From Bacteroidota bacterium (GTDB lineage Bacteria; Bacteroidota; Bacteroidia; UKL13-3): a DNA stretch of 64,000 nucleotides. The position numbers and the translations under genes are program-made. Below the pieces are notes generated by a model. The model was given only the letters and a program-made list of their open reading frames with translations. It ran no database searches and was not told where the DNA came from. Shown piece after piece: positions 13,298 to 60,640 of the stretch (position 1 is its first letter; every line of letters begins with the position of its first letter). Location: positions 18,965-82,964 of the forward strand of contig JAUXUD010000014.1 of the NCBI GenBank assembly GCA_030680835.1, given 5' to 3'.

Positions 13298-15634
13298 ATG
13301 CAATGCAGATTTTGTAAAACTGAATTAGTACATGAGTTTATTGACCTGGTTAATTGTCCTGCAAGCAATAGCTTTCTTACCATAGAACAACTTAGCGAAC
13401 CTGAAGTTTTTTACCCCTTAAAAGTTTATACTTGTCACAAATGTTTTTTGGTGCAGGTAGATGAGTACAAAAAATCGGATGCTATTTTTAGCAGCGATTA
13501 CGTTTATTTTTCTTCATTCTCTACTACCTGGCTGCAACACAGCAAAGCTTACGTTGAAAAAATGATTCAACGTTTTGACTTTGATCAAAATTCATTCGTG
13601 ATGGAGATCGCCAGTAATGACGGATATTTGCTGCAATATTTTAAAGAAAAAGGAGTGCCAGTTTTAGGGATTGAACCAACTATAAATACTGCTAACGCTG
13701 CCAGGGAAAAAGGTATTGAAAGTGTAAATGAATTTTTCGGAACAGCGCTAGCAACCAGCTTAGCCCAACAAAAAAAGCCGGATCTTTTATTGGGAAATAA
13801 TGTCCTCGCTCATGTGCCGGATATTGTAGATTTTGTTGCCGGAATGAAAATTGTATTGGCTGATAAAGGTGTGATAACTATGGAGTTCCCGCACCTATTG
13901 CAATTGGTTGACAATAACCAGTTCGACACCATTTATCACGAGCATTTTTCTTACTTATCTTTCTTCACGGTAAAACAGATTTTTGAATCCCGCGGACTTG
14001 AAATGTTTGATGTGGAAGAGATTCCCACACATGGTGGTTCTCTTCGTATTTATGCCAAACATAAAGGTGATTCATCCAAACCCATATCTGCAAATGTTCA
14101 ACAATTAATCAATAAGGAAATAAGTTCCGGTATTAATAATATCGAATATTATAACGGTTTCTTTAAAAGGGCTCAAACTGTTAAAATAGATTTATTGAAT
14201 TTTTTGATTAAACAGAAAAACGAAGGGAAAACTGTCGCTGCATATGGAGCTGCTGCCAAAGGTAACACGCTGTTGAACTTTTGTGGAATTAAAAATGATT
14301 TGATCAGTTTTGTTGTGGATGCGAATCCTGCCAAACAAAACAAATTCTTACCCGGTAGCCATATTCCGGTGATGAATGAGGCATACTTGAAGAATACAAA
14401 ACCTGCTTATGTTATCATCTTTCCCTGGAATCTTAAGGAAGAGATCGTGAAACAATTAGATTATATTAATGAATGGGAAGGGAAATTTGTCATACCCATT
14501 CCGAAATTAGAAATTATGAACACCGCAGTACAACAAAGGATCCCAATTTCAAAACCTTCTATTACCCAGTTAGAAATTAATTATGTGAATGATGCCATAA
14601 CTAATGGATGGGGATCCCATTGTTATGATTATATCATTCGTTTTCAAAAATTATTCGCATCCTATTTGAAATCGGATTATGCCTTGGCTACTTCAAGTTG
14701 TACCGGGGCCATACATCTTGCTTTTCTTTCTATCGGGTTACAACCCGGAGACGAAGTGATATGTCCTGATATCACCTGGATAGCCTCAGTAGCCCCTATC
14801 ACTTATATCGGAGCAAAACCGGTATTTGTTGACGTTAAAAAAGACACCTGGTGTATTGATCCTGAAAAAATTGAACAGGCAATTACCTCCAGAACAAAAG
14901 CCATCATGCCTGTGCACCTATACGGAAATGTATGTGAAATGGATGAGATCATGGCAATTGCAAAAAAATATAATTTGTTTGTCATCGAAGACGCTGCGGA
15001 GGCTTTGGGCTCTGAATATAAGGGAAAGAAAGTTGGCAGCATCGGAGACTTTGGCGCATTTTCTTTTCACGGCACAAAAACGATGACTACAAGTGAAGGC
15101 GGGATGCTGGTGACAAACAATAAAACTTTGTTTGATGAAGCATTAATTTACAATGATCATGGCAGAGACCATCGGAATCCCAAAACATTCTGGATGGAGC
15201 GGATTGGCTATAAATATAAAATCTCAAACTTACAGGCTGCCTTAGGTTGTGCACAGGTTGAACGGCTTGAAGATTTAGTGAATAAAAAAAGGGAAATATT
15301 TAATAGCTACAAAACACTTTTAAATGGTTTGCCCGGTTTGAGCATGAATGCAGAACAGGAATATGTAAAAAACAGTTACTGGATGCCAACAATCATATTT
15401 GACGAACCGGTAAATTTTAACAGGGAAAATTTATTTGCACAAATGAAAGAACACAATATTGACAGCAGGCCTTTCTTTTACCCCTTATCCTTTCTGCCTA
15501 TGTTTGAAACAAAAAAAGAAAACACCGTGTCATATGGTATTTATGATAGAGGAATTAATCTTCCAAGCTATTATGACATTACTCAAAAAGAAATTGAAAA
15601 AGTGGTTAATGTTATTAAAAGTAAAGTAAAGTGA
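13298..15634 (+). CDS. bifunctional fusion protein: NDP-hexose C-methyltransferase (TylCIII/EvaC family) fused to a DegT/DnrJ/EryC1 PLP aminotransferase
   Basis: The N-terminus CRFCKTELVHEFIDLVNCPASNSF is the zinc-ribbon start of sugar C-methyltransferases. A SAM-methyltransferase core follows (about 410 aa). The C-terminal ~370 aa has the DegT PLP-lysine motif (FSFHGTKTMT). It is one uninterrupted 778-aa ORF. Confidence 0.7.
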   Translation: MQCRFCKTELVHEFIDLVNCPASNSFLTIEQLSEPEVFYPLKVYTCHKCFLVQVDEYKKSDAIFSSDYVYFSSFSTTWLQHSKAYVEKMIQRFDFDQNSFVMEIASNDGYLLQYFKEKGVPVLGIEPTINTANAAREKGIESVNEFFGTALATSLAQQKKPDLLLGNNVLAHVPDIVDFVAGMKIVLADKGVITMEFPHLLQLVDNNQFDTIYHEHFSYLSFFTVKQIFESRGLEMFDVEEIPTHGGSLRIYAKHKGDSSKPISANVQQLINKEISSGINNIEYYNGFFKRAQTVKIDLLNFLIKQKNEGKTVAAYGAAAKGNTLLNFCGIKNDLISFVVDANPAKQNKFLPGSHIPVMNEAYLKNTKPAYVIIFPWNLKEEIVKQLDYINEWEGKFVIPIPKLEIMNTAVQQRIPISKPSITQLEINYVNDAITNGWGSHCYDYIIRFQKLFASYLKSDYALATSSCTGAIHLAFLSIGLQPGDEVICPDITWIASVAPITYIGAKPVFVDVKKDTWCIDPEKIEQAITSRTKAIMPVHLYGNVCEMDEIMAIAKKYNLFVIEDAAEALGSEYKGKKVGSIGDFGAFSFHGTKTMTTSEGGMLVTNNKTLFDEALIYNDHGRDHRNPKTFWMERIGYKYKISNLQAALGCAQVERLEDLVNKKREIFNSYKTLLNGLPGLSMNAEQEYVKNSYWMPTIIFDEPVNFNRENLFAQMKEHNIDSRPFFYPLSFLPMFETKKENTVSYGIYDRGINLPSYYDITQKEIEKVVNVIKSKVK

Positions 15635-37455: not shown

Positions 37456-38487
37456 ATGTTAAATAAAAAAGTATTATTAATTACCGGTGGAACAGGTTCA
37501 TTCGGAAATGCGGTCTTAAATCGATTTTTGAATACTGATCATTTTAAAGAAATCAGAATATTTTCAAGGGATGAAAAAAAACAGGACGATATGAGGAATC
37601 AATTTAAGAATGACAAATTGAAATTCTATATCGGCGATGTACGTGATTTTAATAGCATTGAGAGGGCAATGCGAGGAGTAGATTATGTATTTCATGCCGC
37701 CGCACTAAAACAGGTGCCATCTTGTGAGTTTTTCCCTATTGAAGCTGCAAAAACAAATGTATTTGGCACACAAAATGTGATTGACGCTGCTGCAGCAAAT
37801 AATGTAAAAAAAGTTATTTGTTTAAGCACAGACAAGGCTGCTTATCCAATAAATGCAATGGGAATATCAAAAGCCTTGATGGAAAAAGTAGCAGTGGCTG
37901 CATCCAGAAGTCTAACCAACACCACAGTTTGTCTGACAAGATATGGAAATGTGATGGCCTCAAGGGGCTCCGTAATTCCTCTGTTTTTAAAACAAATCAA
38001 ATCCGGCCAACCCATAACAATTACCGACCAAAAAATGACAAGGTTCCTTATGTCATTGGAGGACGCTGTTGAGCTGGTATTATTTGCCTTTGAACATGGT
38101 AACCAGGGTGATTTATTTGTAAACAAAGCACCGGCAGGAACGATTGGTGACCTGGCTCAGGCGTTGAAGGAAATTTGTGAGGCTAATACAGAAATAAAAA
38201 TCATTGGAACGCGACATGGAGAAAAATTATATGAAACACTTTGTACCCGTGAAGAGATGAAGAAAGCTGAAGATATGGGAGAATTTTACAGAGTTCCTGC
38301 TGATAACAGGGATTTGAATTATGCCCAGTATTTCTCTGAAGGAGAACAAGACATATCCCTGATTGAGGATTATCATTCACACAATACAACCCAATTAGAT
38401 ATTGAAGGAATGAAAAAACTATTAATGAAGTTGCCTTTAATACGGAAAGAGGTGTTTGGAGAAGATGTAGCTCAAATGCCGGGTTAG
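37456..38487 (+). CDS. UDP-N-acetylglucosamine 4,6-dehydratase/5-epimerase (CapE/FnlA/WbjB family)
   Basis: MLNKKVLLITGGTGSFGNAVLNRFL and the 343-aa length are typical of CapE/FnlA. Confidence 0.85.
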   Translation: MLNKKVLLITGGTGSFGNAVLNRFLNTDHFKEIRIFSRDEKKQDDMRNQFKNDKLKFYIGDVRDFNSIERAMRGVDYVFHAAALKQVPSCEFFPIEAAKTNVFGTQNVIDAAAANNVKKVICLSTDKAAYPINAMGISKALMEKVAVAASRSLTNTTVCLTRYGNVMASRGSVIPLFLKQIKSGQPITITDQKMTRFLMSLEDAVELVLFAFEHGNQGDLFVNKAPAGTIGDLAQALKEICEANTEIKIIGTRHGEKLYETLCTREEMKKAEDMGEFYRVPADNRDLNYAQYFSEGEQDISLIEDYHSHNTTQLDIEGMKKLLMKLPLIRKEVFGEDVAQMPG

Positions 38488-38488
38488 G

Positions 38489-38636
38489 AGAAAGTAAAAA
38501 GTAAAAAGTAAAAAGTAAAAAGTAAAAAGTAAAAAGTAAAAAGTAAAAAGTGAAAATTGAAAAGTGAAAAGTAAAAAGTAAAAAGTAAAAAGTTAAAAGT
38601 TAAAAGAGAAAAGAAAATAGTGAATAGTAAAAAGTA
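38489..38636. repeat. heptanucleotide tandem array (AAAAGTA)n, about 18 to 20 units with a few variant units
   Basis: Read directly: agtaaaaagtaaaaagtaaaaag... The minus-strand 74-aa ORF here is a repeat artefact (FTFYFLLFTF...). Confidence 0.9.
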
Positions 38637-38719
38637 ATTAGTTTCAGTGCCAACCACATGAATCACTTCACACCTATCCATACTTACTTTTGCCTTTTTA
38701 CTACTCACAAGAATCTAAA

Positions 38720-39133
38720 ATGTCCCCTAAAATAATCAAAGGTAACATTCACTCTGACTCAAGAGGAACATTGTATTATAATAATGATTTTGATGCTTCT
38801 CAAATCAAGCGAATTTATTTTATTGAAAATATAGACACTGATTTTATAAGAGGCTGGCAGGGACATAAGATTGAACAAAGGTGGTTTTCGGCTGTACTTG
38901 GATCTTTTAGAATTAGCATCTTGCCAATAGTGAGTTTTGAATCTTCTACTCAGAAAGTGAAGCCTCTTATATTTGAACTTTTTTCAAAACAACTGGACGT
39001 TTTGCATACACCTGGGGGTTATGTAACCGCCATTCAGGCATTGGAATCAAACGCTAAATTATTGGTAATGGCCGATTACCATTTAGGAGAGATAAATGAC
39101 GAATATCGATTTGAAGTAAAAAGTATAAAGTAA
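38720..39133 (+). CDS. small WxcM-like cupin-domain protein (putative sugar ketoisomerase-like)
   Basis: SDSRGTLYY...IKRIYFI...RGWQGHK resembles the FdtA/WxcM C-terminal domain. The ATG at 38720 is chosen over the TTG at 38690. Confidence 0.45.
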   Translation: MSPKIIKGNIHSDSRGTLYYNNDFDASQIKRIYFIENIDTDFIRGWQGHKIEQRWFSAVLGSFRISILPIVSFESSTQKVKPLIFELFSKQLDVLHTPGGYVTAIQALESNAKLLVMADYHLGEINDEYRFEVKSIK

Positions 39134-39245
39134 AAAGTATAAAGTAATATCAATTCCTTAGTAACTTTTATCTTTTCCCTTTTATCTTTTCCCTTTCCCC
39201 CATTCACTTTTTACTTTTGCCTTTTTACTTTTGCCTTATATCTAA
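39113..39245. repeat. AAAAGTA/TACTTTT-derived repeat block spanning the cupin gene 3' end and the intergenic region
   Basis: aagtaaaaagtataaagtaaaaagtataaagtaa, then tttttacttttgcctttttacttttgcc. The 18-mer TACTTTTGCCTTTTTACT also occurs at 38682-38699 upstream of the gene. Confidence 0.8.
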
Positions 39246-40370: not shown

Positions 40371-40421
40371 GGTGATTAGTGACTTGTAACTGGTGATTAG
40401 TGACTTGTAACTGGTGATTAG
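40371..40421. repeat. 21-bp direct repeat GGTGATTAGTGACTTGTAACT, 2 full copies plus 1 partial
   Basis: Read directly. A complementary or inverted counterpart lies at 40876-40930. Confidence 0.85.
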
Positions 40422-40875: not shown

Positions 40876-40930
40876 AACTACAAGTCACTCAATGGACAAA
40901 CCAGTCACTAATCACCAATCACCAATCACC
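40876..40930. repeat. inverted counterpart of the 40371 repeat plus (AATCACC)3
   Basis: actacaagtcactcaatgg...cagtcactaatcaccaatcaccaatcacc. CACCAATCACCAATCACC also occurs at 40487-40506, immediately before the four-helix-bundle gene. Confidence 0.8.
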
Positions 40931-40942
40931 AAGCTAAAAGTA

Positions 40943-45952: not shown

Positions 45953-47089
45953 ATGAAGGTTGCACTAATAACAGGAATTACAGGACAAGATGGAGCATAT
46001 TTAACAGAATTCCTTTTAAACAAAGGGTATTTTGTTCATGGAATTAAAAGACGAAGCAGTCTGTTTAATACTGAAAGAATAGATCATCTCTACCAGGATC
46101 CGCATGAAAAACATCTCCGCTTAAAATTACATTATGGAGATTTAACAGATAGTACTAATCTCATAAGAATTATACAAGAAACCCAACCTGATGAAATATA
46201 TAACCTCGCGGCTATGAGCCATGTACATGTTAGTTTTGAAACCCCTGAATATACTGCAAATGCGGATGGGATCGGAACTCTCAGGATTTTAGAAGCAGTT
46301 CGTTTACTTGGTTTGAGTCAAAAAACAAAAGTTTATCAGGCGTCAACTTCTGAATTATACGGCCTTGTGCAGGAAGTACCCCAGAATGAAAAAACCCCAT
46401 TCTATCCACGTTCACCATATGCCGTTGCTAAATTATATGGATATTGGATTACAGTAAATTACAGGGAGGCATATAAAATGTTTGCTTGCAATGGTATTTT
46501 ATTCAACCATGAAAGTCCGATGCGTGGAGAGACTTTTGTTACACGTAAAATTACCCGGGCAGTTAGCAAAATAGTGTTAGGCCTGAATGAGAAGCTTTAT
46601 TTGGGCAATTTGAATGCCCAACGTGATTGGGGACATGCAAAAGATTATGTAGAAGCCATGTGGTTAATTTTGCAGCAGGAAATGCCAGAAGATTTTGTGA
46701 TTGCAACGGGAATTACTACATCAGTTAGAGAATTTGTACGCTTGGCTTTTGAAAATGTTGGCATTAATTTGGTTTTTGAAGGCTTAGGTGAACATGAATA
46801 TGGAAAGATAGGTTCTTTTAATAATTCCAGACTTACCGAATTGGGAATTATTAACACCAAACTAAAAATTGGAGATACTTTAGTTCAGGTTGATCCAAAA
46901 TATTATCGCCCAACCGAAGTTGATTTGTTAATCGGTGACCCAACAAAATCACAAAGAAAACTTGGATGGAAACCAAAATATGATTTGGCTTCATTGGTAA
47001 CAGAAATGATTGAAAGCGATTTAAAATTGGTAAAAAGAGATTTGTACTTAAAAGATAAAGGGTATAAAGTTTTGTCTAAGCTTGAATGA
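45953..47089 (+). CDS. gmd: GDP-mannose 4,6-dehydratase
   Basis: [22 protein letters not shown]...HGIKRRSS is diagnostic of Gmd. Confidence 0.9.
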
Positions 47090-47327
47090 ATATAACGTGA
47101 AAATGTAAAGATAAAATTGAAAACCCTTTTCACAATGATCTAATTTGATGATGCGTGTTTTCTTAGGACTGTGAGAATTGTGAATGGAAGGGAAACAAAT
47201 ATTAGCCGTTCAATTTTGAAATAGTAGTAGGAATTAAGAGTTAAGAATTAAGAATTTGGAAGTGTGAAAATGATTTCATAATTCATACTTCATCATTCAA
47301 ACTTAAAATAAAACTGAAAGATAAATA

Positions 47328-48479
47328 ATGTCAAAAATAAAATTTGTAATTATTGGATTTGGGCATATTGGCAAACGCCATGCAACCATTGCGAATGATT
47401 ACCCGGGAGCTGAAGTAGTGGCTGTGGTGGATTTGAATAAAGATGTTGTAAAGCATGAGTTATTTCCTAAGGGTGCACAGTTTTTTGAAAGCATTGAAGC
47501 TTTTATGGGGGCGAAAGTTGCAGCGGATATTGTAACCATAGCAACACCAAATGGGTTTCATTGTCCGTATGCAATTAAGATGCTTGATGTGGGTTACCAT
47601 GTGGTGATTGAAAAACCTATGGGGCTCAGCAAAGCAGAGTGTGAACAGGTAATTTTTAAATCGCTTCAGGTATCCAAACAGGTATTTGTGGTTAAACAAA
47701 ATAGATATAGTCCGCCCAGTAAATGGATGAAGGAGATTGTTGGAAATAAAACAATTGGGGAAGTGTTAATGGTACAGGTTAATTGTTATTGGAATAGGGA
47801 TGAACGATACTATAAGAAGCGAGATCCCGATAGCTATCGGGAGAGAAACGAAATCCTTCGACAAGCTCAGGATGACAGGGAAATGAGAGTGGATATAGAT
47901 AAAAAAACTCATACCTCATACCTAATACCTCATAACTCATCAGACTGGAAAGGAACTTTGGATTTAGACGGTGGTACCCTGTTCACCCAATTCTCGCACT
48001 TCGTGGATATTATGTACTGGGTATTTGGCGATGTGAAAAACATCAAAGCTACCTTCGCCGATTTTAACCATGCTGAGCTTACTGAGTTTGAAGACAGCGG
48101 GGTTATAAATTTTGAGTTTGTAAATGGAGGATTAGGATGTATTAACTTTTCAACTTCTGTATGGGACACCAATATGGAAAGCAGCATTACAGTTGTTGGA
48201 ACAAAGGGAAGTTTTAAAGTAGGCGGACAGTATATGAATGAGGTAGTGTATTGCCATATAAAAGATTATGAAATGCCGGTGCTCCCTCCTACCAATGCGC
48301 CGAATGACTATGGTCCGTTTAAGGGGAGTGCGGCGAATCATCATTTTGTGATTGAGAATGTGGTGAATACTTTGAATGGCAGGGATACGATTACTGCGAA
48401 TGCGTTGGAGGGGTTGAAGGTTGTGGATATAATTGAACGCATCTACGAGCAGAGAGATTTGGCTAAATTAAAGAAATAA
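47328..48479 (+). CDS. UDP-N-acetyl-2-amino-2-deoxyglucuronate 3-dehydrogenase (WbpB/WlbA-like Gfo/Idh/MocA). Carries an in-frame MITE-derived insertion.
   Basis: FVIIGFGHIGKRHA and VVIEKPMG. The segment 47853-47944 matches the intergenic TIR repeat (ccttcgacaagctcaggatgacagg) and codes ...ILRQAQDDREMRVDIDKKTHTSYLIPHNS. Confidence 0.7.
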   Translation: MSKIKFVIIGFGHIGKRHATIANDYPGAEVVAVVDLNKDVVKHELFPKGAQFFESIEAFMGAKVAADIVTIATPNGFHCPYAIKMLDVGYHVVIEKPMGLSKAECEQVIFKSLQVSKQVFVVKQNRYSPPSKWMKEIVGNKTIGEVLMVQVNCYWNRDERYYKKRDPDSYRERNEILRQAQDDREMRVDIDKKTHTSYLIPHNSSDWKGTLDLDGGTLFTQFSHFVDIMYWVFGDVKNIKATFADFNHAELTEFEDSGVINFEFVNGGLGCINFSTSVWDTNMESSITVVGTKGSFKVGGQYMNEVVYCHIKDYEMPVLPPTNAPNDYGPFKGSAANHHFVIENVVNTLNGRDTITANALEGLKVVDIIERIYEQRDLAKLKK

Positions 48480-48480
48480 C

Positions 48481-48560
48481 CCGTTCACGCAGATTCCGCA
48501 GATTTTAGCAGATTCAATCTGCGATAATCTCCATTAATCTGCCAAATCTGCGTGAAAGGA
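48481..48560. repeat. REP-like palindromic element: TTCACGCAGAT (GCAGAT x3) ... (ATCTGC x3) ATCTGCGTGAA
   Basis: Read directly. Related copies are at 50396-50510 and 51025-51100. Confidence 0.85.
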
Positions 48561-48567
48561 TAAATAA

Positions 48568-49149
48568 ATGAATATGAAAAATTATTATTCACACGAAACA
48601 GCTATCATTGATGAAGGCTGTGAGATTGGTGAGGGTGTAAAAATCTGGCACTTCTCACATATTATGACGAATTGTATTATTGGCGAAAAATGCAATATTG
48701 GTCAGAATGTTGTGGTATCGCCTGAAGTTGTTTTGGGGAAAAATGTGAAGGTTCAAAACAATGTAAGTATTTATACGGGTGTTATTTGTGAGGATGATGT
48801 ATTTCTGGGACCGAGCATGGTTTTTACCAATGTGATAAATCCACGGAGTGCGGTGAATCGGAAGAGTGAATATGCAAAAACGGTAGTTAAAAAGGGAGCC
48901 AGTATTGGTGCCAATGTAACGATTGTATGCGGACATGATATTGGTGAGTATGCTTTTATCGGTGCGGGAGCGGTGGTTACCAAAACAGTTCCGGCTTATG
49001 CTCTTGTAGTGGGGAATCCGGCGAAGCAGATTGGTTGGGTATCGGAGTATGGGCATCGGTTGGTTTTTGATGAGAAAGGGAAAGCTTTTTGTATTGAAAC
49101 CAAACAGGAATATGAACTGAAAGACAATGTAGTAAAACGCCTTTTTTAA
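48568..49149 (+). CDS. left-handed beta-helix N-acetyltransferase (WbpD/WlbB-like)
   Basis: Hexapeptide repeats (IGEKCNIGQNVVV..., IGANVTIVCG...). It lies between the WbpB and WbpE homologues. Confidence 0.75.
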   Translation: MNMKNYYSHETAIIDEGCEIGEGVKIWHFSHIMTNCIIGEKCNIGQNVVVSPEVVLGKNVKVQNNVSIYTGVICEDDVFLGPSMVFTNVINPRSAVNRKSEYAKTVVKKGASIGANVTIVCGHDIGEYAFIGAGAVVTKTVPAYALVVGNPAKQIGWVSEYGHRLVFDEKGKAFCIETKQEYELKDNVVKRLF

Positions 49150-49264
49150 TTTTTAAAATTCTTATGCTACAAAGAAACAAAGGAACAAATAGTGACTCGA
49201 AATTTCTTATAGTCGTACTTTGTTTCTTTGTGCCTTTGTAGCAAAAAAAAAGTGAAAACATAAA

Positions 49265-50389
49265 ATGAAAATCCAAATGGTAGACTTAAAAAGTCAATAT
49301 GAAAAAATTAAATCGGAAGTAGATGCGGGTATCCAGGAAGTAATTGATAATACCGCTTTCATTAAAGGTCCGCAGGTAAAGAAGTTTGAAACAGAACTTA
49401 CGGCGTATTTAAATGTAAAGCATGTAATAGCCTGCGCCAACGGAACGGATGCTTTGCAAATAGCTATGATGGCGTTGGAACTGAAACCGGGTGATGAAGT
49501 TATTTTGCCTGCTTTTACATATGTTGCTACAGCGGAGGTGATTGCGTTATTGGGGTTGAAACCAGTAATGGTTGACGTGGAACCGGAGACGTTTTGTATA
49601 AATGTTCAATTAATCGAATCCAAAATTACCCCTAAAACAAAAGCTATTGTTCCAGTGCACTTGTTTGGGCAATGTGCCAATATGGACGCAATTTTAACAA
49701 TTGCCAGCAAGCACAGATTATTTGTAATTGAAGATACTGCACAGGCTTTAGGTTCTGTCTATACTTTTGGCGACCGGAGTAAAAAAAGTGCAGGGTGCAT
49801 GGGTACAATTGGTACTACAAGTTTTTTCCCTTCCAAAAACCTGGGTTGCTATGGGGATGGAGGAGCGTTAATGACGAACGACGATGAACTGGCTAAAAAA
49901 CTTAGAATGGTGGCAAACCATGGCCAGGCAATACAATATAAACATGATTGCATAGGTGTTAATTCAAGGTTGGATACCCTGCAGGCTGCGATATTACTTG
50001 CTAAGCTCCCACATTTGGATGCATATGCAGCAGCACGCCACCAGGCTGCAAACATATATGATCAACTATTGGGAAATCATCCAAAAATAAAAATACCGGC
50101 TCGCAATCCACAATCTACCCATGTGTTTCATCAATATACGATGCAATTAACAGGCGTTGACAGAGACACAGTTAGAAAAGCATTGGCTGATAAAGGAATT
50201 CCATCCATGGTTTATTATCCAATTCCACTTCATCAGCAAAAAGCGTTTTATAATCCCGATTATACCGATGCGGATTTTCCGGTGACGGTTGAGTTATGTA
50301 AGTCGGTTTTATCTTTGCCTATACATACGGAAATGGATGAAGAGATGATTCAATTTATATCCAATAATTTATTGGAGTTGGTTAGTTAG
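49265..50389 (+). CDS. DegT-family aminotransferase (WbpE/WlbC-like)
   Basis: FFPSKNLGCYGDGGALMT (PLP-Lys). Confidence 0.8.
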   Translation: MKIQMVDLKSQYEKIKSEVDAGIQEVIDNTAFIKGPQVKKFETELTAYLNVKHVIACANGTDALQIAMMALELKPGDEVILPAFTYVATAEVIALLGLKPVMVDVEPETFCINVQLIESKITPKTKAIVPVHLFGQCANMDAILTIASKHRLFVIEDTAQALGSVYTFGDRSKKSAGCMGTIGTTSFFPSKNLGCYGDGGALMTNDDELAKKLRMVANHGQAIQYKHDCIGVNSRLDTLQAAILLAKLPHLDAYAAARHQAANIYDQLLGNHPKIKIPARNPQSTHVFHQYTMQLTGVDRDTVRKALADKGIPSMVYYPIPLHQQKAFYNPDYTDADFPVTVELCKSVLSLPIHTEMDEEMIQFISNNLLELVS

Positions 50390-50395
50390 TATACG

Positions 50396-50510
50396 GTTCA
50401 CGCACCCTTCGACAGGCTCAGGGTGACAAAAAGATTAAAGCAGATTATCGGAGATTAATTTCTGCGATAATCTGCTTTAATCTGCGACATCTGCGTGAGT
50501 GTGAAAAATT
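50396..50510. repeat. composite repeat: GTTCACGCA, then a solo MITE TIR (CCTTCGACAGGCTCAGGGTGACA), then ATCTGCG palindromic repeats
   Basis: Read directly. Confidence 0.8.
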
Positions 50511-50524
50511 AAAACCCAATCACA

Positions 50525-51049
50525 ATGCAAAAGCCATTAAGCTTTTTTTTAATCTTTGCAGCAAGTTATATTCTATTGAACCTGCTGTACCAGGCTTTGC
50601 TTTATTACTATACTCCCCTGCCCGATTTGTTTACGGTTGCTGTTACACGAGTTACTTTAACGTTATTACCCAACTTAAGCTATCAAACACTTTCTCATGC
50701 GACCGGACTGCAAATAATATCTGCCACACATGCAATTGTTAATATTAAAGAAGGATGCAATGGGATAGCGGTTTGGATTGCTTTGTTGAGTTTTATTATT
50801 GCTTTTAAATCCGGGAGTTTTAAAGCATATCTTATTTTTATTCCTGTTTCATTTATTATTATTCAGGTATGTAATGTTTTGAGGTTATATTTATTGATTC
50901 AGATTAAAATGAACCGGGTTTATTATTTTGATTTTTTTCATACCTATATTTTCCCGGCAATTATTTATTTATTTGCTTTTTTGTTGATGGTGGTTTGGGT
51001 TATGAGATTTGTTAAAGTGATACCTGTTCACGCAGATTATAAAGATTAA
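50525..51049 (+). CDS. exosortase-family membrane protein, XrtF-like
   Basis: 174 aa, polytopic. KEGCNGI (candidate active-site Cys) and CNVLRLY (conserved Arg) resemble exosortase motifs. The C-terminus runs into the REP-like element. Confidence 0.45.
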   Translation: MQKPLSFFLIFAASYILLNLLYQALLYYYTPLPDLFTVAVTRVTLTLLPNLSYQTLSHATGLQIISATHAIVNIKEGCNGIAVWIALLSFIIAFKSGSFKAYLIFIPVSFIIIQVCNVLRLYLLIQIKMNRVYYFDFFHTYIFPAIIYLFAFLLMVVWVMRFVKVIPVHADYKD

Positions 51050-51122
51050 AGCTGATTTGGGAGATGCGAATCTGCGAAATCTGCGTGAAAGGAAAAAACG
51101 CTCAAACCAAACAGCATTATCA

Positions 51123-51515
51123 ATGAAAACCAAAATTATAATAACCTTTTCGATCCTCCTCATCATCCTTAATTTCTCGCTTCAAACTTTTGATATATAT
51201 ACTTTCTCCTTCAATAAATGTGGCTTTTATTTGTTTGATTCTTCCTGTATGGATCGGGCTACATTTATCACTAATAAACTCATCCGGTTTATTGTAAACA
51301 GCTCCTGTTTACTGTTATTGGTTCATGGCTTTACGAAGCGCTCCGGAAACCAATTTTTATTTCTCCTTTTTGTTTTGATTTTTCTTTTGGGTATTGACTT
51401 GTTTTTTGCAATGCATGGTGGTGAATTTTTTGTTCAGTTGCATAAAATTCTTAACCCTATTGTTTACAGTCCATTAGTAACGATAGCCTATATCGGCTCA
51501 CGGTTTTTTAGATAA
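51123..51515 (+). CDS. small membrane protein, candidate exosortase-F-associated partner
   Basis: Hydrophobic 130-aa ORF immediately after the XrtF-like gene. The track start at 51057 reads through the repeat, so the ATG at 51123 is preferred. Confidence 0.35.
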   Translation: MKTKIIITFSILLIILNFSLQTFDIYTFSFNKCGFYLFDSSCMDRATFITNKLIRFIVNSSCLLLLVHGFTKRSGNQFLFLLFVLIFLLGIDLFFAMHGGEFFVQLHKILNPIVYSPLVTIAYIGSRFFR

Positions 51516-51730
51516 CATTCATCCATTTATTAATTAAATTACGCCCTTTCAGGGCTTAGGAATTTGTGGGCTTCATTGAACGATGGGCTTCACCCATCGC
51601 TATTGATGGCGGCCTTTCAGGCCTGGGATTATTCGCTTAAATTTTTATATTTTTTAATGATAATTTTGTGGGAAGGTGGGAAGGGCAAAATGCAATTTGC
51701 CCGTACCAGTGATTTTATATAGATTTGTTT

Positions 51731-53449
51731 ATGTTGTTTTTGATTGCTTATTTTATTTTTGTTTTTGTTTTGCTGTTTGTTTATGGGGTGCTGCCATTTG
51801 TTTTTTTGAAACAGGTTCCGCCGCGAAATCCGTTTGTGGGTTTTGTTCTTGGGTTTGCAGTGCTGGGGTTTATGAGCATTTTGTTTTGGGTGGGTGGGCC
51901 TGTTAATTTTCTTTGTTTTTGGGTTACGGTTTTGGGGGCTGTTGTTGCACTATGGATGAACCGGGAATATTATTTATTGGCGTTTACGCAATTAATTAAT
52001 TGGGTCAGACAACAAGCCCTTTTTGAAAAGGCATTGATTGGATTGTTGTTAATTGTGATTCTCTACCAAAGTGCGCAAGCACCAAAAATTAATGATATGG
52101 GCATGTATTATTTACAAACCATGCAATGGATGCACAGTTATGGTTTGGTTCATGGGCTTGCTAACCTGCATCCTGCATTGGGATTGGGTTCAGCCTGGCA
52201 TAGCCTTGTGGTTTTATTGGATCCGTTTTCAATTGGATTGGGGCATTTTTGGCAATTAAATGGGGTGTTGCTGTATGTGTTTATTTTGTTTTGTTGGTTT
52301 GAAATTAAACAATATGCTTCTGTTTATTTATGGATTGTATTTATTATTTCTATTCCTGTTTCGTTTATGTATCTTACGGCTCCGAGTCCGGATTTGCCTG
52401 TTTTATTATTGAGTGGGATTTTGTTTTATACTGTTTGGTTTCTTACTGATAAAATACATTGGTTTACACTACTGCTTTTATGTGTATTTATATTTGCCTG
52501 CAAGCCTCCGGCTTTTTTGGCGGTGTTGATGGCTTTTGTAGTTTTTATTAGCATCGTTAAATCAGCAAAAAAAAGAATACTTTTTATTTTTTTTGGATTG
52601 CTTTTGTGTTCATTAGTTTTATATAAAAATTATATTTTATCGGGCTATTTGTTGTACCCTTATAGTAAGCCGGATATTATGGATGTAAGCTGGAAGGTGC
52701 CTGCAGATTGGAATGCAGCCTACACTAAGGGTATTGTTAGTTGGGGATTAAGGGACAAATGGGACTTGGGGGACAAGGGGGACTTATGGGGGAATTATGG
52801 GGGAAATACCAGGTTATGGGTTTGGTTGACACGATTGGGGTATAAGGGGTTTATGAATAAGCTGATTTTTTTGAATTTTTTGTTGGGGCTTGTGAATTTA
52901 TTTTTGGGACTTAAAGCTAAGAAAATATTTTCGAAAGATTATTTGGTTTTGATTGCTATTCTGTTTATTCAAATCATTGAATGGTTGATGTTGAGTCAGT
53001 ATCGGTTGATGTTGCCAGGCAGTTTGGTTTTAGTTGGATTTAATTTTTATTTAATTGTAAATTCATTTAAAATTGAAAATTCATGGCTAACACGATTTAA
53101 TTTATCATTTAAACCTTTGGTTGTTTATGCCCTTATGATGTTTTACGGGCTTGCATTAATTCCTTTTAGTGTATTCTCTAAAGGATCGAGGAACAAAACG
53201 ATTACCCGATTGGACGGGTTTAATAGCAATTATTTGATTGAACCATACAAGGGATTTGTTAATGAAAAAATGGATAGTATAATTGTTGATTCTATGAATA
53301 TTTATTATTATCCCAATCAAACTTATTGCTGGGATTGTGCGATTCCTTGTGTGAGTAATTCACATAGGAAATTTCTGTTTAATAATTTTGAATATACTGT
53401 GAAGCCTTTGGGTACAAGGGTTTCGGAGGGATTTATGTTGATTAAATAG
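51731..53449 (+). CDS. large polytopic membrane protein of unknown function (N-terminal ~400 aa hydrophobic, C-terminal soluble region)
   Basis: Continuous 570-aa ORF. The smaller overlapping + ORFs (51676..51906, 52071..52259) are rejected. Confidence 0.45.
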   Translation: MLFLIAYFIFVFVLLFVYGVLPFVFLKQVPPRNPFVGFVLGFAVLGFMSILFWVGGPVNFLCFWVTVLGAVVALWMNREYYLLAFTQLINWVRQQALFEKALIGLLLIVILYQSAQAPKINDMGMYYLQTMQWMHSYGLVHGLANLHPALGLGSAWHSLVVLLDPFSIGLGHFWQLNGVLLYVFILFCWFEIKQYASVYLWIVFIISIPVSFMYLTAPSPDLPVLLLSGILFYTVWFLTDKIHWFTLLLLCVFIFACKPPAFLAVLMAFVVFISIVKSAKKRILFIFFGLLLCSLVLYKNYILSGYLLYPYSKPDIMDVSWKVPADWNAAYTKGIVSWGLRDKWDLGDKGDLWGNYGGNTRLWVWLTRLGYKGFMNKLIFLNFLLGLVNLFLGLKAKKIFSKDYLVLIAILFIQIIEWLMLSQYRLMLPGSLVLVGFNFYLIVNSFKIENSWLTRFNLSFKPLVVYALMMFYGLALIPFSVFSKGSRNKTITRLDGFNSNYLIEPYKGFVNEKMDSIIVDSMNIYYYPNQTYCWDCAIPCVSNSHRKFLFNNFEYTVKPLGTRVSEGFMLIK

Positions 53450-53450
53450 T

Positions 53451-53602
53451 ATCCTTCGACAGGCTCAGGATGACAAGCCTTCTTGTTATATTTGGCAGTG
53501 ATTTTTGGTGGGATAAATTTTTTGCAAAGCAAAAAATTTATCCCACCAAAAATCACTGCTCTTAATTAATTGCGTATTGTCATCCTGAGCTTGCCGAAGG
53601 AT
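53451..53602. mobile_element. MITE-like non-autonomous palindromic element
   Basis: Terminal inverted repeats ATCCTTCGACAGGCTCAGGATGACAA (53451-53476) and TTGTCATCCTGAGCTTGCCGAAGGAT (53577-53602). They enclose a perfect internal palindrome, gcagtgatttttggtgggataaatttttt-gcaaagc-aaaaaatttatcccaccaaaaatcactgc. Confidence 0.6.
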
Positions 53603-55681: not shown

Positions 55682-56093
55682 GGGAAATGGGACCCTTCGA
55701 CAAGATCAGGATGATATGGGAAATGGGCAGGGTTCAATTTTGATATCAATTAAAATGGGCACGCGCGAGGCTTGCCCCTACGGGATTTTTATTGTGAATA
55801 AATTCGCTATATGAATTTATTATGCCATTACATTATTAATAATCAAATCCTTTTAATTAGATTTATTCTAAATAGTATTTTTTTTTCACATGCTATGCAG
55901 TGAAGATGGTGTGTGCTTATATTCGCGGCACATTAGTAAAAAGCAATAGAGTCTGTCTATAATGTCCTCTGGCTGCGTTATGCTCGTCCCCAAAAATGCT
56001 CATGTACACGAGCACACTGCGCTTTTTGGAAACTCGCATGCCTTGCCAGAGAACATTCTATCCCAGACTCTATACTAATGGACTGACACAAAT

Positions 56094-57417: not shown

Positions 57418-57476
57418 ATTTCTGAACCCAGAACGAATGTTTGTTTCAACAACAATTAACAGGAAAAAAATTATCA

Positions 57477-60400
57477 ATGGAAAATAAAAATCAATATTGG
57501 AGAGGCTTAGAGGAATTAAACAATGATCCCAAATTTTTAGCGGGAAAGAAACGTGAATTTGCAGAAGGCATACCCCTGGAAGATGTGTTTACTGAAGAAG
57601 ATGGTGGGCTGAACTCGAACCGCAGAGATTTTTTGAAATATTTCGGTTTTGGAATTTCTGCAGTTGCATTGGCAGCCTGTAATAAAACTCCCATTAAAAA
57701 TGCAATCCCCTATATTATAAAACCCGAAAATATTACTCCGGGTACCCCCAACTGGTATGCATCCACCTGCAATGCATGTGCTGCCAATTGCAGTATATTG
57801 GTTAAAACCCGTGAAGGCCGTCCGATTAAAATTGAAGGCAATGCGGAGTCGCCGGTTTTTAAAGGAGCAACCTGCGGCATGGGCCAGGCAAGCCTTTTGG
57901 GCTTATATGATAATGAGCGTTTACGCAAACCCAAAGCAAAAGGGAATGATGTGAGCTGGGAAACATTGGATGCTGAAATAAAAACGGCTTTGGCCGGATC
58001 AAAAAATATCAGGTTAATTAGTGGTACGGTAAACAGTCCCTCTACCAAAAAAGCCATAGCTGAATTCACAGCAAAATATCCTTCCACACAACATATTCAA
58101 TACGAAGCAAACTCGATGGGTGCGCTTGCGGAAGCAACCAAACGTGCATTTGGTAAAGCAGTAGTTCCCGGATATCGTTTTGATAAAGCAAATGTAATTG
58201 TAAGTTTTGGGGCAGACTTTTTAGGTACCTGGATTTCGCCGGTAGAATATACCAAACAATGGACGGTTAACCGGAGACCGGAAAACAAAAACATGAGCCG
58301 CCATATTCAATTGGAATCGTATCTTTCGTTAAGCGGTTCGAATGCCGATGTGCGTTATCCGATAAAACCGTCGGCTGAAGGTGCATATATTATCAGCTTA
58401 TATAACCGCATTGCTTCTTTAGCAGGTGCTCCCCAATTGGGCACCATGCCTGCCGTTGAATTGCCTTTAGATGGAATTACTACCATGGCCAAAGAATTAT
58501 GGGCAGCCAAAGGCCAGTCATTAGTAGTTTGTGGTTCCAATAATATTGATCATCAGTTATTGGTTCATGCCATTAATAATATGCTTGGAAATATTGGCAA
58601 TACAGTTGATTTAAACAACTACAGCAACCAGCATTATAGCGATGATGCTGCCTTTGAAACATTCGCAAAAGAACTGGAAAGCGGTGTTGTAGATGCAGTT
58701 ATTTTTTATAATACCAATCCGGTTTACAGTTATTATAACGGAGCCAAACTGGCTGCTTCCATAAAGAAAGCCAAGGTAAGTATTGCCAGCAATACAAACC
58801 TGGATGAAACTTCAGAGAATTGCCAGTACAATGCACCTGATCATCATTTTCTGGAAGCATGGAATGACAATGAACCTAAGGCAGGGTATTTCACATTTAC
58901 ACAACCCAGCATTTCAAATGTTTTTCAAACCAGGCAGATGCAGGAAAGTTTATTGAACTGGGCCGGAAATACAAGTAACTATTACGACTATTTAAAAAAC
59001 AACTGGGCATCACGCTTAAGTGGTGAAACTTGGGTGAAGGCCATTCATGATGGTTTTTACATACAGCCTGTTGCCGCTTCAAACACCAGCTTTAACGCAG
59101 ATTTAAATGCTGCTGTGAGTCCGGCTTACTCGGTTTATACCACAGCGAAAACAAAATTAGAGCTTAAGTTATATTCTAAAATAGGCGTTCGTGATGGTTC
59201 AAACGGACATAACCCCTGGTTGCAGGAATTGCCTGATCCGATTAGTAAAGTATGCTGGGATAATTATGCATGCATAGGAAATGCAACAGCAAAAGAACTG
59301 AATATAAAAGATGGTGACCTGATTAATATTAATTTAAAAGGTTCAAAAATTGAAGCAGTACCGGTTTTGGTTCAACCCGGACAACCCAATAATGTGATAG
59401 CCCTGGCAATTGGTTACGGACGCACCAGCGGCGGAAAAGCAGGTAAGAATGTAGGTAAGAATGCATATCCTGCAAGCAGCTTTATGAATTCTTTTTCTTT
59501 TATTAATACGGATATTACTATTGAAAAAGCAGATGGTGAATATGAACTGGCACATACCCAAACTCACCATACCATTGAAGGAAGAAATCTGATTAAAGAA
59601 ACTTCATTGAATGAGTATAATAAAGATAACAAATCGGATAACCAGGATACCCATAAAGTAATTAAAGAGCAAGGCAATTTGATTACACTTTGGGATGAAC
59701 GCGACCATAAAGGTCATCGTTGGGCTATGGCCGTTGACATGAACAAATGCACAGGTTGCGGCTCATGTGTGGTGAGCTGTAATGCCGAAAATAATGTTCC
59801 TGTTGTAGGTAGAAAAGAAGTATTGGTAAGCAGGGAAATGCACTGGATTCGTATTGACCGCTACTATCGTTTTAGTAATGCTACCGATAATAAAATTACA
59901 AAGGAAGACGATTACAATAAAGAAAATTCGGGCATTAATTTCGAGAATGTAAGTGTTACGTTTCAACCGATGTTATGTCAGCAATGCGGACATGCACCTT
60001 GCGAAACGGTGTGCCCGGTAATTGCAACTGTACATAGCAGTGAAGGTTTGAACCATATGGCGTATAACCGTTGTGTGGGAACCCGCTATTGTGCGAATAA
60101 CTGTCCGTATAAAGTACGCAGGTTTAACTGGTTTAAATACCGTGCCAACGATCAGTTTGATTTTAACTTCAACAACGATTTGGGACGTATGGTTATTAAT
60201 CCGGATGTTACGGTTCGGTCGCGCGGGGTAATGGAAAAATGTTCATTCTGTGTACAAAGAATACAGGCAGGTAAATTAATGGCCAAAATGGAAAACAGAA
60301 TTGTAAAAGATGGAGATATAAAAACAGCCTGTCAGCAATCATGCCCTGCCGATGCGATTATTTTTGGAGATATCAATGATGAGAAAAGTGAGGTAAGAAA

Positions 60401-60512
60401 ATATTTTGAGAATGACCGTTCGTTCTTTTTATTGGAAGAATATAATGTTCAGCCTTCGGTAACGTATTTGACGAAGGTGAGGAATGTTGGGGAGAAATTG
60501 GTTAACACCTAG
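57477..60512 (+). CDS. actB: alternative complex III subunit ActB (molybdopterin-oxidoreductase-like plus 4Fe-4S fusion)
   Basis: Tat motif RRDFLKYFGFG. C-terminal Cys clusters (CTGCGSCVVSC, CQQCGHAPC). About 1000 aa. The ATG at 57477 gives MENKNQYWRGLEEL. Confidence 0.85.
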   Translation: MENKNQYWRGLEELNNDPKFLAGKKREFAEGIPLEDVFTEEDGGLNSNRRDFLKYFGFGISAVALAACNKTPIKNAIPYIIKPENITPGTPNWYASTCNACAANCSILVKTREGRPIKIEGNAESPVFKGATCGMGQASLLGLYDNERLRKPKAKGNDVSWETLDAEIKTALAGSKNIRLISGTVNSPSTKKAIAEFTAKYPSTQHIQYEANSMGALAEATKRAFGKAVVPGYRFDKANVIVSFGADFLGTWISPVEYTKQWTVNRRPENKNMSRHIQLESYLSLSGSNADVRYPIKPSAEGAYIISLYNRIASLAGAPQLGTMPAVELPLDGITTMAKELWAAKGQSLVVCGSNNIDHQLLVHAINNMLGNIGNTVDLNNYSNQHYSDDAAFETFAKELESGVVDAVIFYNTNPVYSYYNGAKLAASIKKAKVSIASNTNLDETSENCQYNAPDHHFLEAWNDNEPKAGYFTFTQPSISNVFQTRQMQESLLNWAGNTSNYYDYLKNNWASRLSGETWVKAIHDGFYIQPVAASNTSFNADLNAAVSPAYSVYTTAKTKLELKLYSKIGVRDGSNGHNPWLQELPDPISKVCWDNYACIGNATAKELNIKDGDLININLKGSKIEAVPVLVQPGQPNNVIALAIGYGRTSGGKAGKNVGKNAYPASSFMNSFSFINTDITIEKADGEYELAHTQTHHTIEGRNLIKETSLNEYNKDNKSDNQDTHKVIKEQGNLITLWDERDHKGHRWAMAVDMNKCTGCGSCVVSCNAENNVPVVGRKEVLVSREMHWIRIDRYYRFSNATDNKITKEDDYNKENSGINFENVSVTFQPMLCQQCGHAPCETVCPVIATVHSSEGLNHMAYNRCVGTRYCANNCPYKVRRFNWFKYRANDQFDFNFNNDLGRMVINPDVTVRSRGVMEKCSFCVQRIQAGKLMAKMENRIVKDGDIKTACQQSCPADAIIFGDINDEKSEVRKYFENDRSFFLLEEYNVQPSVTYLTKVRNVGEKLVNT

Positions 60513-60513
60513 A

Positions 60514-60640
60514 GACGCCATAAATGGCGTCTGTACGGGTGGAAGCGGAACATTGGATGGGAAATGGGGTGGAAGCCGAATATTGGGTGGTAACATGTAA
60601 AGACGCCATTTATGGCGTCTCCTGGTGGAAGCCAAATATT
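60514..60640. repeat. twin 20-nt hairpins (AGACGCCATAAATGGCGTCT and AGACGCCATTTATGGCGTCT) flanking three approximately 22-bp direct repeats (GGTGGAAGCnnAAnATTGGnT) in the actB-actC spacer
   Basis: Read directly. Confidence 0.85.

Follow-up and report, generated by a model that had tools for sequence, protein, structure and literature searches.

Dispersed TGTC-tagged hairpin repeats, and a tail-tail dimer of them, in a Bacteroidota polysaccharide-biosynthesis locus, and the linkage of such repeats to genes for SsnA-type nucleases

The window analysed here, meaning the whole stretch of 64,000 nucleotides of Bacteroidota DNA that was examined, has a GC content of 35% and carries nearly all of its long open reading frames (ORFs) on the + strand. 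The region under study is a polysaccharide-biosynthesis cluster with wlbA-, hexapeptide acetyltransferase- and DegT aminotransferase-type genes, a gene for a DUF8201 protein and a gene for a Polysacc_synt_2 (CapD/WbpM-like) protein. A 152-bp composite element (53451-53602) sits between two co-directional genes of this cluster, its left arm beginning 2 nt past the stop codon of ORF 51725-53449, whose product belongs to the DUF8201 family according to a precomputed Pfam call on a contig of the Logan assembly SRR13727518. The composite, its parts and the related single units elsewhere in the cluster are as follows.

47817..47933, + strand: in-frame insertion in wlbA, 117 nt or 39 codons, relative to PDB 3q2i/3q2k and to homologues of about 345 aa
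47853..47878, - strand: solo unit, in frame in the wlbA-type dehydrogenase gene (47328-48479), to whose product it contributes ILRQAQDD
50404..50429, - strand: solo unit with the stem ACCCT/AGGGT (a compensatory variant), 15 nt past the aminotransferase stop codon
53451..53476, - strand: left arm of the composite, ATCCTTCGACAGGCTCAGGATGACAA, with the tagged strand 5'-TTGTCATCCTGAGCCTGTCGAAGGAT-3'
53477..53576, no strand assigned: spacer of 100 nt, made up of an 18-nt linker, a perfect palindrome and a 17-nt linker
53495..53559, no strand assigned: inner palindrome, AT-rich and perfect, 31+3+31 nt
53577..53602, + strand: right arm of the composite, tagged strand TTGTCATCCTGAGCTTGCCGAAGGAT
55692..55717, - strand: solo unit, slightly degenerate (tag TATC, loop GATC), 11 nt past the Polysacc_synt_2 stop codon

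The original prediction for this DNA had described a 152-bp unit bounded by 26-nt inverted repeats and enclosing a 65-nt perfect hairpin, and both structures were recovered. The outer arms (53451-53476 and 53577-53602) are complementary at 24 of 26 positions (92%) with 100 nt between them, while the inner arms (53495-53525 and 53529-53559) are complementary over all 31 nt (100%) around a 3-nt loop. By eye, the two linkers of the spacer show no complementarity to each other, and a repeat search of the 64-kb window reported no second copy of either the interior of the composite or its inner palindrome. The TGTC tags of the arms at 53451 and 53577 point inward, an arrangement termed 'tail-tail' (TT), and in the published nomenclature of REP elements the composite is a tail-tail dimer of hairpin repeats with a 100-nt structured spacer. 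The Logan contig, which comes from an independent assembly, is identical to the window from 46626 to 53524 and ends 3 nt before the centre of the palindrome (53527), a break of the kind to be expected of an assembler that meets a perfect palindrome. A search of the window against Rfam returned no match at the gathering threshold and only sub-threshold, generic miRNA-hairpin matches at a permissive threshold, and a literature search by sequence strings produced only coincidences with primers, for example at the 5' end of 16S.

To describe the arms as a family, we searched the window with the 22-nt arm pattern CATCCTGAGCNNNNCGAAGGAT, allowing up to three mismatches, and found five copies, at 47853(-), 50404(-), 53451(-), 53581(+) and 55692(-). 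The number expected by chance is 0.02, none of 100 shuffles reached five copies, and all five lie between 47.8 and 55.7 kb, with none in the remaining 56 kb of the window. The arms thus belong to a dispersed repeat family, as had been predicted from four copies within 8 kb, although two of the positions given for those copies (50407 and 55691) were off by 1-3 nt and are here corrected to 50404 and 55692. The peptides predicted from the arms also proved correct: the arms translate into LRQAQDD/HPELVEG-type peptides, and in one case, that of the 47853 copy (...ILRQAQDD...), the peptide belongs to the reading frame of a real gene. A derivation of the arms from a fragment of a known gene, which the same prediction had considered, did not hold up: they match a repeat family, not a gene.

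Units in the window occur in four contexts: paired (the composite), solo and bracketed by a direct repeat, embedded in a repeat of a different family, and intragenic. The solo unit at 55692 lies between two identical 10-bp direct copies of GGGAAATGGG (55682-55691 and 55718-55727). The unit at 50404 is nested in the left arm of a copy (50396-50498) of a second palindromic repeat family, GTTCACGCAGATT…AATCTGCGTGAA, of which intact copies are present at 48479-48560 and 51022-51097. A scan of the window for further families of a similar kind, using 'GTCA + hairpin' as the query, gave 17 matches where 14±3 are expected, which is at chance level; the scan rises above chance only by four of the five known copies, the one at 55692, with its degenerate tag, not being expected among the matches. 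As a separate observation, GC skew is positive throughout the window and all genes are on the + strand, so that the + strand is probably the leading strand; for four of the five units (n = 5 only) the tagged strand, which by analogy would be the cleavable one, would then be the leading-strand template and little exposed as single-stranded DNA (ssDNA).

Each unit has a polarity. On the tagged strand it reads (T)TGTC-ATCCT-GAGC-YTGY-CGA-AGGAT, and consists of an unpaired 5' tag, (T/C)GTCA, a stem of 5 bp, a conserved internal loop GAGC…CGA and an apex of 3-5 nt. The internal loop allows tandem G·A/A·G mismatches and one or two inner pairs, so that five Watson-Crick pairs, two G·A positions and the one or two inner pairs add up to about nine stem positions. 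Stem variants include ATCCT/AGGAT, ACCCT/AGGGT, ATTCT/AGAAT, ATGCT/AGCAT and others, and the first two stem pairs are A-T, followed by T-A (or C-G). In the window, four of the five copies are preceded by TGTCA. Among the 4-mers that stand 5' of the stem, TGTC is the most frequent (114 cases), joined by CGTC (7 cases). The 3' tail, CT(N) across the wider family, differs between the window copies; it is CCA in neither group. In most phyla the apex reads GCGNAGC, with N free, which we take to be a GNA-triloop DNA mini-hairpin, a feature that would fit a single-stranded DNA form.

Folding energies say little about these units: nearest-neighbour rules make a single one only weakly stable (-1.5 to -2.7 kcal/mol) and no better than shuffles, a result that is uninformative, though as it stands it does not favour the hairpin. 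Covariation was assessed on units near ssnA genes (described below), with the 3' arm left unconstrained. Pairing was seen in 81% of cells, compared with 22-47% when partners were slid, and double-sided changes numbered 61 against 19±5.5 in shuffles, none of 500 shuffles reaching 61. Five of the seven pairs covary, including an inner G-C/A-T pair of the internal loop. Each arm of the composite is a self-contained, covarying hairpin module and not a transposon end. A hammerhead or K-turn reading of the string CUGAGC…CGAAG was considered and rejected, the hammerhead core being incomplete and the tagged strand being antisense to transcription in most window copies.

The intragenic copy lies in an insertion that corresponds to residues 164-202 of WlbA, between …RYYK and …WKG. 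The insert is a mosaic, beginning with a palindrome, ATCCCGATAGCTATCGGGA (47824-47842), which was found nowhere else in the window, and continuing with the hairpin unit and then a CTCATACC-type repeat. Sixteen of 23 aligned WlbA homologues (75-86% identical to the window protein) carry inserts of about 20-45 residues in the same loop, and these inserts are of at least five unrelated sequence types; among the 23 homologues and the window protein, only the insert of the latter contains the hairpin unit. In the closest relatives the insert has the same 3' part but reads DMGKEKG where the window has RDPDSYRERNEILRQAQDDR, which suggests that an older insert was itself the site of a secondary insertion.

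A related genome (L202), in which WlbA is 84% identical and the gene order is the same, was compared with the window site by site. After its DUF8201 gene it has, in place of the 152-bp dimer, a single unit of a different variant, GTCAGTTCGAGCGGAGTCGAGAACT, in which four of the five stem pairs differ from those of the window and all four differences are compensatory. The promoter-proximal part of the spacer that follows the DUF8201 gene is conserved between the two genomes. The relative has no unit at the other three sites, which are occupied instead by another hairpin repeat, by an uninterrupted copy of a related palindromic element or by a different wlbA insert; its own variant recurs at 14165-14189. 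These differences indicate that units appear, vanish or are replaced within a short evolutionary time, each genome having its own stem variant.

The same comparison bears on an RNA-level role for the composite, according to which it would be a hairpin at the 3' end of the upstream mRNA, serving to terminate transcription or to protect that mRNA, the repeat identity of its arms being incidental. The position of the composite, 2 nt past a stop codon and between co-directional genes, would suit such a role, elements of the REP type that follow ORFs are in many cases part of the transcript and able to stabilise it (PMC3733652), and the predicted transcript fold is so strong (-94.8 kcal/mol, z -16) that the composite may affect the 3' end of the upstream mRNA. 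A simple scan of 53451-53602, however, found no T-run and no terminator-like site, and the features of an intrinsic terminator were not found there, the inner stem being AT-rich and the 3' flank reading CTTCCAACTG. In addition, the sense transcript would contain the untagged strand of four of the five units, and solo units are weak hairpins. Finally, the composite is missing from the orthologous spacer of the close relative, in which the promoter-proximal part of the spacer is nonetheless retained; with only a solo unit of a different variant at that site in the relative, the composite is not a conserved regulatory feature. We therefore consider it quite unlikely that an RNA-level role explains the element, while noting that such a role could be a side effect and as such is compatible with its explanation as a dimer of hairpin repeats.

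To examine how widely the hairpin unit is distributed, we scanned one genome per species for the exact 20-base pattern GTCAYCCTGAGCNNNNCGAAGGRT. The scan returned at least 120 stretches ranging from 31 to 71% GC, with Chloroflexota, Acidobacteriota, Nitrospirota, Saccharibacteria, Planctomycetota, Verrucomicrobiota, Bacillota, Cyanobacteria, Pseudomonadota, Bacteroidota, Omnitrophota and others among the matches listed. The unit is present in more than 15 phyla and is not lineage-specific. Its usual form is tGTCATCCTGAGCG(N)AGCGAAGGATCt, and an inverted partner, either of the same type or with a covarying stem (e.g. ATTCT/AGAAT), often lies 15-100 nt away. Dimers in these loci comprise 44 with the tags outside (HH), 13 with the tags inside (TT) and 16 in tandem (HT). 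The pair in the window is thus of the rarer TT type, and its 100-nt spacer is close to the top of the range for that type, 11 of the 13 TT spacers measuring 6-94 nt and the other two 178 and 256 nt.

Genes that accompany the units were sought by all-against-all BLASTP clustering of the ORFs found within 300 nt of units. One small family proved to be confined to the flanks of units, a protein of about 95 aa with a GIY-YIG domain, while the larger clusters were ordinary enzymes with members also located far from units. In the loci selected by motif, all four GIY-YIG ORFs have units on both sides. The association was then examined in reverse, using 80 metagenome loci picked solely because they encode the ~95-aa GIY-YIG protein and counting strictly defined units within 250 nt of the gene. 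The gene was preceded by a unit in 35 of 75 loci and followed by one in 31 of 74; units stood on both sides of it in 18 of 69 loci and on at least one side in 48 of 80, compared with a background of 0.017 units per equivalent window farther away, an enrichment of about 25-fold. The commonest arrangement is unit, gene and inverted unit, with the tags outward. Most copies that flank these genes have a GNAG apex, whereas the window copies have YTGY and only a few YTGY copies were found near the genes, a mismatch that tells against carrying the link over to the window copies.

The only Pfam domain in the ~95-aa protein is GIY-YIG (PF01541). Its match in N. gonorrhoeae is a 94-aa gene product, 44% identical over 99% of the length, encoded at a single place per genome (tblastn E 6e-18, pairwise E 9e-28); that gene is ssnA, which stands among nine canonical copies of the NTS repeat. 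Judged by these alignments, the unit-linked protein is a true homologue of SsnA. A different assignment of the linked nuclease, to COG2827/UPF0213 (YhbQ), was tried and rejected: the UPF0213 structure 1zg2 was matched only weakly and at the N terminus (E 0.06), and neither an NCBIfam model nor relevant papers turned up. The window itself contains no GIY-YIG/SsnA-like ORF, nor does the 21-kb syntenic locus of the related genome. The original prediction was right that no transposase is present in the window, and it was also right that any protein acting on the units must come in trans, there being no gene for a candidate enzyme in the window.

The inference that had been drawn from this, a MITE-like element, fares less well. 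As a classical MITE the composite would be a 152-bp deletion derivative of a transposon with terminal inverted repeats, moved as a whole by a DDE-type transposase encoded elsewhere, and its 26-nt inverted ends, its length of 152 bp and its want of coding capacity are all as one would find in such an element, as is the perfect 10-bp direct repeat that flanks the solo copy at 55692. The ends, however, also occur alone, nested and within a gene, each of them is itself a covarying, autonomous hairpin, the interior has no second copy in the window, and the linkers between the arms and the palindrome are not complementary. No target-site duplication was found at 53451/53602, and the distribution of flanking direct repeats around 318 units was equal to that of a displaced control; with no excess among these 318 units, we take the 10-bp repeat at 55692 to be idiosyncratic. 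Across phyla, moreover, it is the 24-nt unit that recurs, beside ssnA-type nuclease genes instead of transposase genes. Taken as a MITE, the composite is very unlikely to be correctly described.

Oriented hairpins that flank ssnA-type genes have been described. In Neisseria, the dRS3/NTS repeat (CGTCATTCCCGCGMAVGCGGGAATCYRG) and other Ssn-related motifs (SRM) flank ssnA, the gene for a GIY-YIG protein of 94 aa with a single domain (Chenal 2025, Nat Commun, PMC11893778). The purified protein binds the hairpin and cuts ssDNA only, on the tagged strand only and a few nucleotides upstream, while the reverse strand, dsDNA and RNA remain uncut, as shown for the Neisseria and Wolbachia pairs; in N. 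meningitidis, SsnA action modulates natural transformation (PMC11893778). The units described here resemble SRM/NTS in being oriented hairpins of about 25-30 nt whose 5' tag, (C/T)GTCAT, is unpaired and whose 3' end is of the ATC type, in being dispersed, mostly intergenic and often in inverted pairs around cell-surface genes, and in flanking ssnA homologues, here on either side in 48 of 80 loci and on both sides in 18 of 69, where the published values, obtained with the authors' own motif, are SRM near 71% of ssnA homologues and on both sides in 42% (PMC11893778). They differ in their hosts, most of which in this analysis belong to phyla other than Pseudomonadota, and in their stem, which has only five Watson-Crick pairs and a GAGC…CGA loop, whereas the SRM stem is continuous and GC-rich.

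The last of these differences has a practical consequence. The published SRM search sequence, HGTCWYN(0-2)YYVSBRHN(0-5)WNVSBRGN(0-2)RNCYNB (PMC11893778), matched none of the five window copies, none of 181 copies found by the exact pattern, and only once in the 80 loci selected for ssnA. The ssnA locus of N. gonorrhoeae served as a positive control, in which the same regular expression recovered the nine NTS copies. The pattern fails because it calls for a continuous GC-rich stem at the point where the units follow a 5-bp stem with the GAGC…CGA internal loop. Kinship with SRM consequently rests on architecture and gene linkage and not on the operational definition of those authors.

The same repeats were classed earlier as CGTC-tagged REPs, with families CGTC-1 to -4 that include Neisseria dRS3 and Rickettsia RPE-4/RPE-6 (Di Nocera 2013, BMC Genomics, PMC3733652). 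According to that work, these have an unpaired CGTC tag (TGTC in many repeats, also CCTC), a stem of 8-9 bp that opens with complementary A and T, a loop of 4-5 nt and a 3-nt tail, CCA, and are associated with no transposase; HH dimers prevail and TT dimers are rare, with spacers of 20-100 bp that are sometimes structured; and copies follow the preceding ORF at a distance of under 20 bp or, as with Rickettsia RPE-4/6, are in frame within genes (PMC3733652). The units share with them the CGTC/TGTC terminal tag, the A·T and then T·A first pairs, an excess of HH over TT dimers, spacers of 20-100 bp that sometimes hold stem-loops, locations 2, 11 and 15 nt past stop codons, one intragenic in-frame copy and no transposase. 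In stem, loop and tail the correspondence is partial, with about nine stem positions if both G·A positions are counted and a loop of 3-5 nt, but with two stem positions that are non-Watson-Crick and a CTN or variable tail in place of CCA; a window dimer of the rarer TT type also sets the units apart. The class is already known, CGTC/TGTC-REPs being Ssn-related motifs, while the sequence variant is new and missed by the published pattern; this variant appears to be the common one outside Pseudomonadota.

A palindromic repeat in frame in a conserved gene also recalls the Rickettsia palindromic elements (RPE), as far as these are portrayed in the citation of Ogata 2000 by PMC3733652. Set against that account, the present host is a Bacteroidota metagenome-assembled genome, the 117-nt insert is a mosaic of three short repeats, and many homologues carry inserts unrelated to it in the same WlbA loop.

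REPIN/RAYT systems and bacterial MITEs offer a further comparison, since they too are short inverted doublets that lack coding capacity and would depend on a protein encoded elsewhere. Interpreted as a REPIN, the composite would be a REP doublet mobilised by RAYT, an IS200/IS605-like Y1 transposase, and an inverted doublet of small hairpins with a spacer is indeed the form that REPINs take (PMC3337134), with atypical flanking structures known for some Bacteroidota RAYT subclasses (PMC6006769). Yet the tag is TGTC and not GTAG, repeats of the CGTC type never flank Y1 transposase genes (PMC3733652), and BLASTP clustering of the ORFs beside units yielded no recurrent transposase-like family, the SsnA-like GIY-YIG protein being the only small family confined to their flanks; the units are thus linked to a GIY-YIG nuclease, not to a Y1 or DDE transposase, and show no target-site duplication. 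Mobilisation by RAYT is for these reasons highly improbable. Even less credible is an origin by chance similarity, gene decay or misassembly, for although a perfect 65-nt palindrome is typical of what troubles assemblers and the independent assembly stops near its centre, five copies far exceed the chance expectation, the arms belong to a family of repeats and not to a gene, the flanks run on into syntenic genes, and the independent contig is identical up to its break.

We conclude that the predicted terminal inverted repeats are probably oriented hairpin repeats, a variant of the CGTC/TGTC-tagged REP superfamily (NTS/dRS3, SRM) and presumed targets of SsnA acting in trans, and that the composite is a TT dimer of them around an unrelated palindrome. 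By analogy with the NTS experiments, a small nuclease of the SsnA family, with GIY-YIG as its single domain, would bind the tagged strand once this is single-stranded; the enzyme would be encoded elsewhere in the genome, work in trans and cut ssDNA a few nucleotides 5' of the hairpin. That such a nuclease acts on the copies in this organism, and with what consequence, would follow from the same analogy. The composite would be two units that flank a 100-nt spacer with an unrelated perfect palindrome, and not a transposon with a defined interior. The units would behave as independent modules of fast turnover, placed just 3' of stop codons, nested in a repeat and in a tolerated loop of wlbA.

For this locus, the interpretation means that the element is not a transposon and that no special mechanism is needed to account for it. 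Units of this kind should be masked or annotated as repeats. Extrapolating from the one in-frame case, we presume that they explain a large class of spurious 'hypothetical proteins' with LRQAQDD-, FDKLRMT-, HPELVEG- and VILSEAKDL-type peptides, as well as unexpected insertions in real genes.

The SsnA/SRM system is widened by these findings to a variant that lies outside the published search pattern, and, the variant having been missed by that pattern, estimates of the prevalence of Ssn targets, and the catalogue of enzyme/target pairs from which ssDNA tools are drawn, may be incomplete. A broader proposal, which we offer tentatively and regard as doubtful, is that the GTCAYYCTGAGC…CGAAGRRT unit may be a major and largely unrecognised class of SsnA target in more than 15 phyla, missed by the SRM pattern, and that it may be in active turnover in this surface-polysaccharide locus, the in-frame insertion into wlbA, at a loop that is a hotspot of repeat insertion, being one instance. 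In analogy with the NTS repeats around the surface genes of Neisseria, the units could then mark the locus for SsnA cutting of incoming or replicating ssDNA. If this is true, recombination would be biased at a surface-antigen locus.

Beyond the 26-nt tagged hairpin unit (TGTC tag, 5-bp stem), the window carries several other repeats, listed below with a plasmid-borne relative of the system.

Other repeat features in the window, and the ssnA locus of a Spirosoma plasmid
38463-38650 and 39138-39237: mutually inverted arrays built from a 7-nt repeat, AAGTAAA with its variants (about 25 units)
40376-40408 and 40900-40932: 33-nt inverted repeat TTAGTGACTTGTAACTGGTGATTAGTGACTTGT, 82% complementary
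47817-47933: in-frame mosaic repeat insertion of 117 nt, inside ORF 47328-48479, a wlbA-type UDP-GlcNAcA 3-dehydrogenase gene
48479-48560, 50396-50498 and 51022-51097: second palindromic repeat family, GTTCACGCAGATT…AGCWGATT / AATCTGC…AATCTGCGTGAA
60498-60536 and 60597-60635: 39-nt inverted repeat, 85% complementary, across the stop of a 1023-aa ORF (57441-60512)
L205 760-1560: ssnA homologue with flanking repeats, on a plasmid of Spirosoma oryzicola (Bacteroidota)

Of 23 close homologues of the WlbA protein, 16 hold unrelated inserts of approximately 20-45 residues at the surface loop (…RYYK|…WKG) that contains the mosaic insertion, which makes this loop a hotspot for repeat-derived insertions. 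The second palindromic family begins at stop codons or shortly 3' of them, and its middle copy is split by a 26-nt hairpin unit. In L202, a related genome with the same gene order, the orthologous site carries a related palindrome (CTCGCAGAG…TCTGCGAGA). The wlb module of this relative also includes a 112-aa PDDEXK_3-family gene (11955-12293) between the acetyltransferase and aminotransferase genes; no gene of this family is found at the corresponding position in the window. The 39-nt inverted repeat, with a small palindrome (GAGACGCCAT(A/T)AATGGCGTCT) in either arm, is a REP-like doublet of a family distinct from the hairpin unit. The arms of the 33-nt inverted repeat enclose about 520 nt without a long ORF, one neighbouring ORF ending at 40369 and another starting at 40892. 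Inverted microsatellite arrays around a single gene are an unusual arrangement, found here on both sides of a 147-aa ORF (38690-39133) whose FdtA/WxcM-like match is weak and below threshold.

Every 8-kb bin of the window (1-64000) has a positive GC skew, and all of its long ORFs lie on the plus strand. Four of the five window units have their tagged strand on the minus strand, the probable leading-strand template.

Among the matches listed from loci L002-L201 of other genomes and metagenomes, the unit's apex in most phyla reads GCGNAGC, where N can be any base (GAA, GCA, GTA, GGA), while the window's subfamily has a YTGY apex in its place. The GCGNAGC apex matches the GNA-triloop DNA mini-hairpin, a likeness hinting that the functional form of the unit is single-stranded DNA. 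At L013, L016, L038, L061, L078 and L086, two to three tandem partial copies, comprising the 5' half only, precede complete units (for example, tgtcatcctgagcacttac twice, then the full hairpin), a pattern that points to slippage at the hairpin or to abortive events recurring there, or else to iterated half-sites.

On the Spirosoma plasmid, an inverted dimer with tags outside, made of a further unit variant (GTCATCCCGAGGAACGAGGGATC), lies upstream of the ssnA homologue, and a perfect palindrome (TTTTGTCATCCT…AGGATGACAAAA) lies downstream. The GAGGAACGA variant at this locus is presumably the source of the common spurious Bacteroidota peptides 'VIPRNEG/SLRGTKQS'.

The published degenerate pattern for Ssn-related motifs (SRM; Chenal 2025) matched none of 181 copies of the hairpin unit among the matches listed, and only one site across the 80 ssnA-selected loci. 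Since the pattern misses the hairpin unit, a large share of ssnA genes may have been counted as having no motif nearby.
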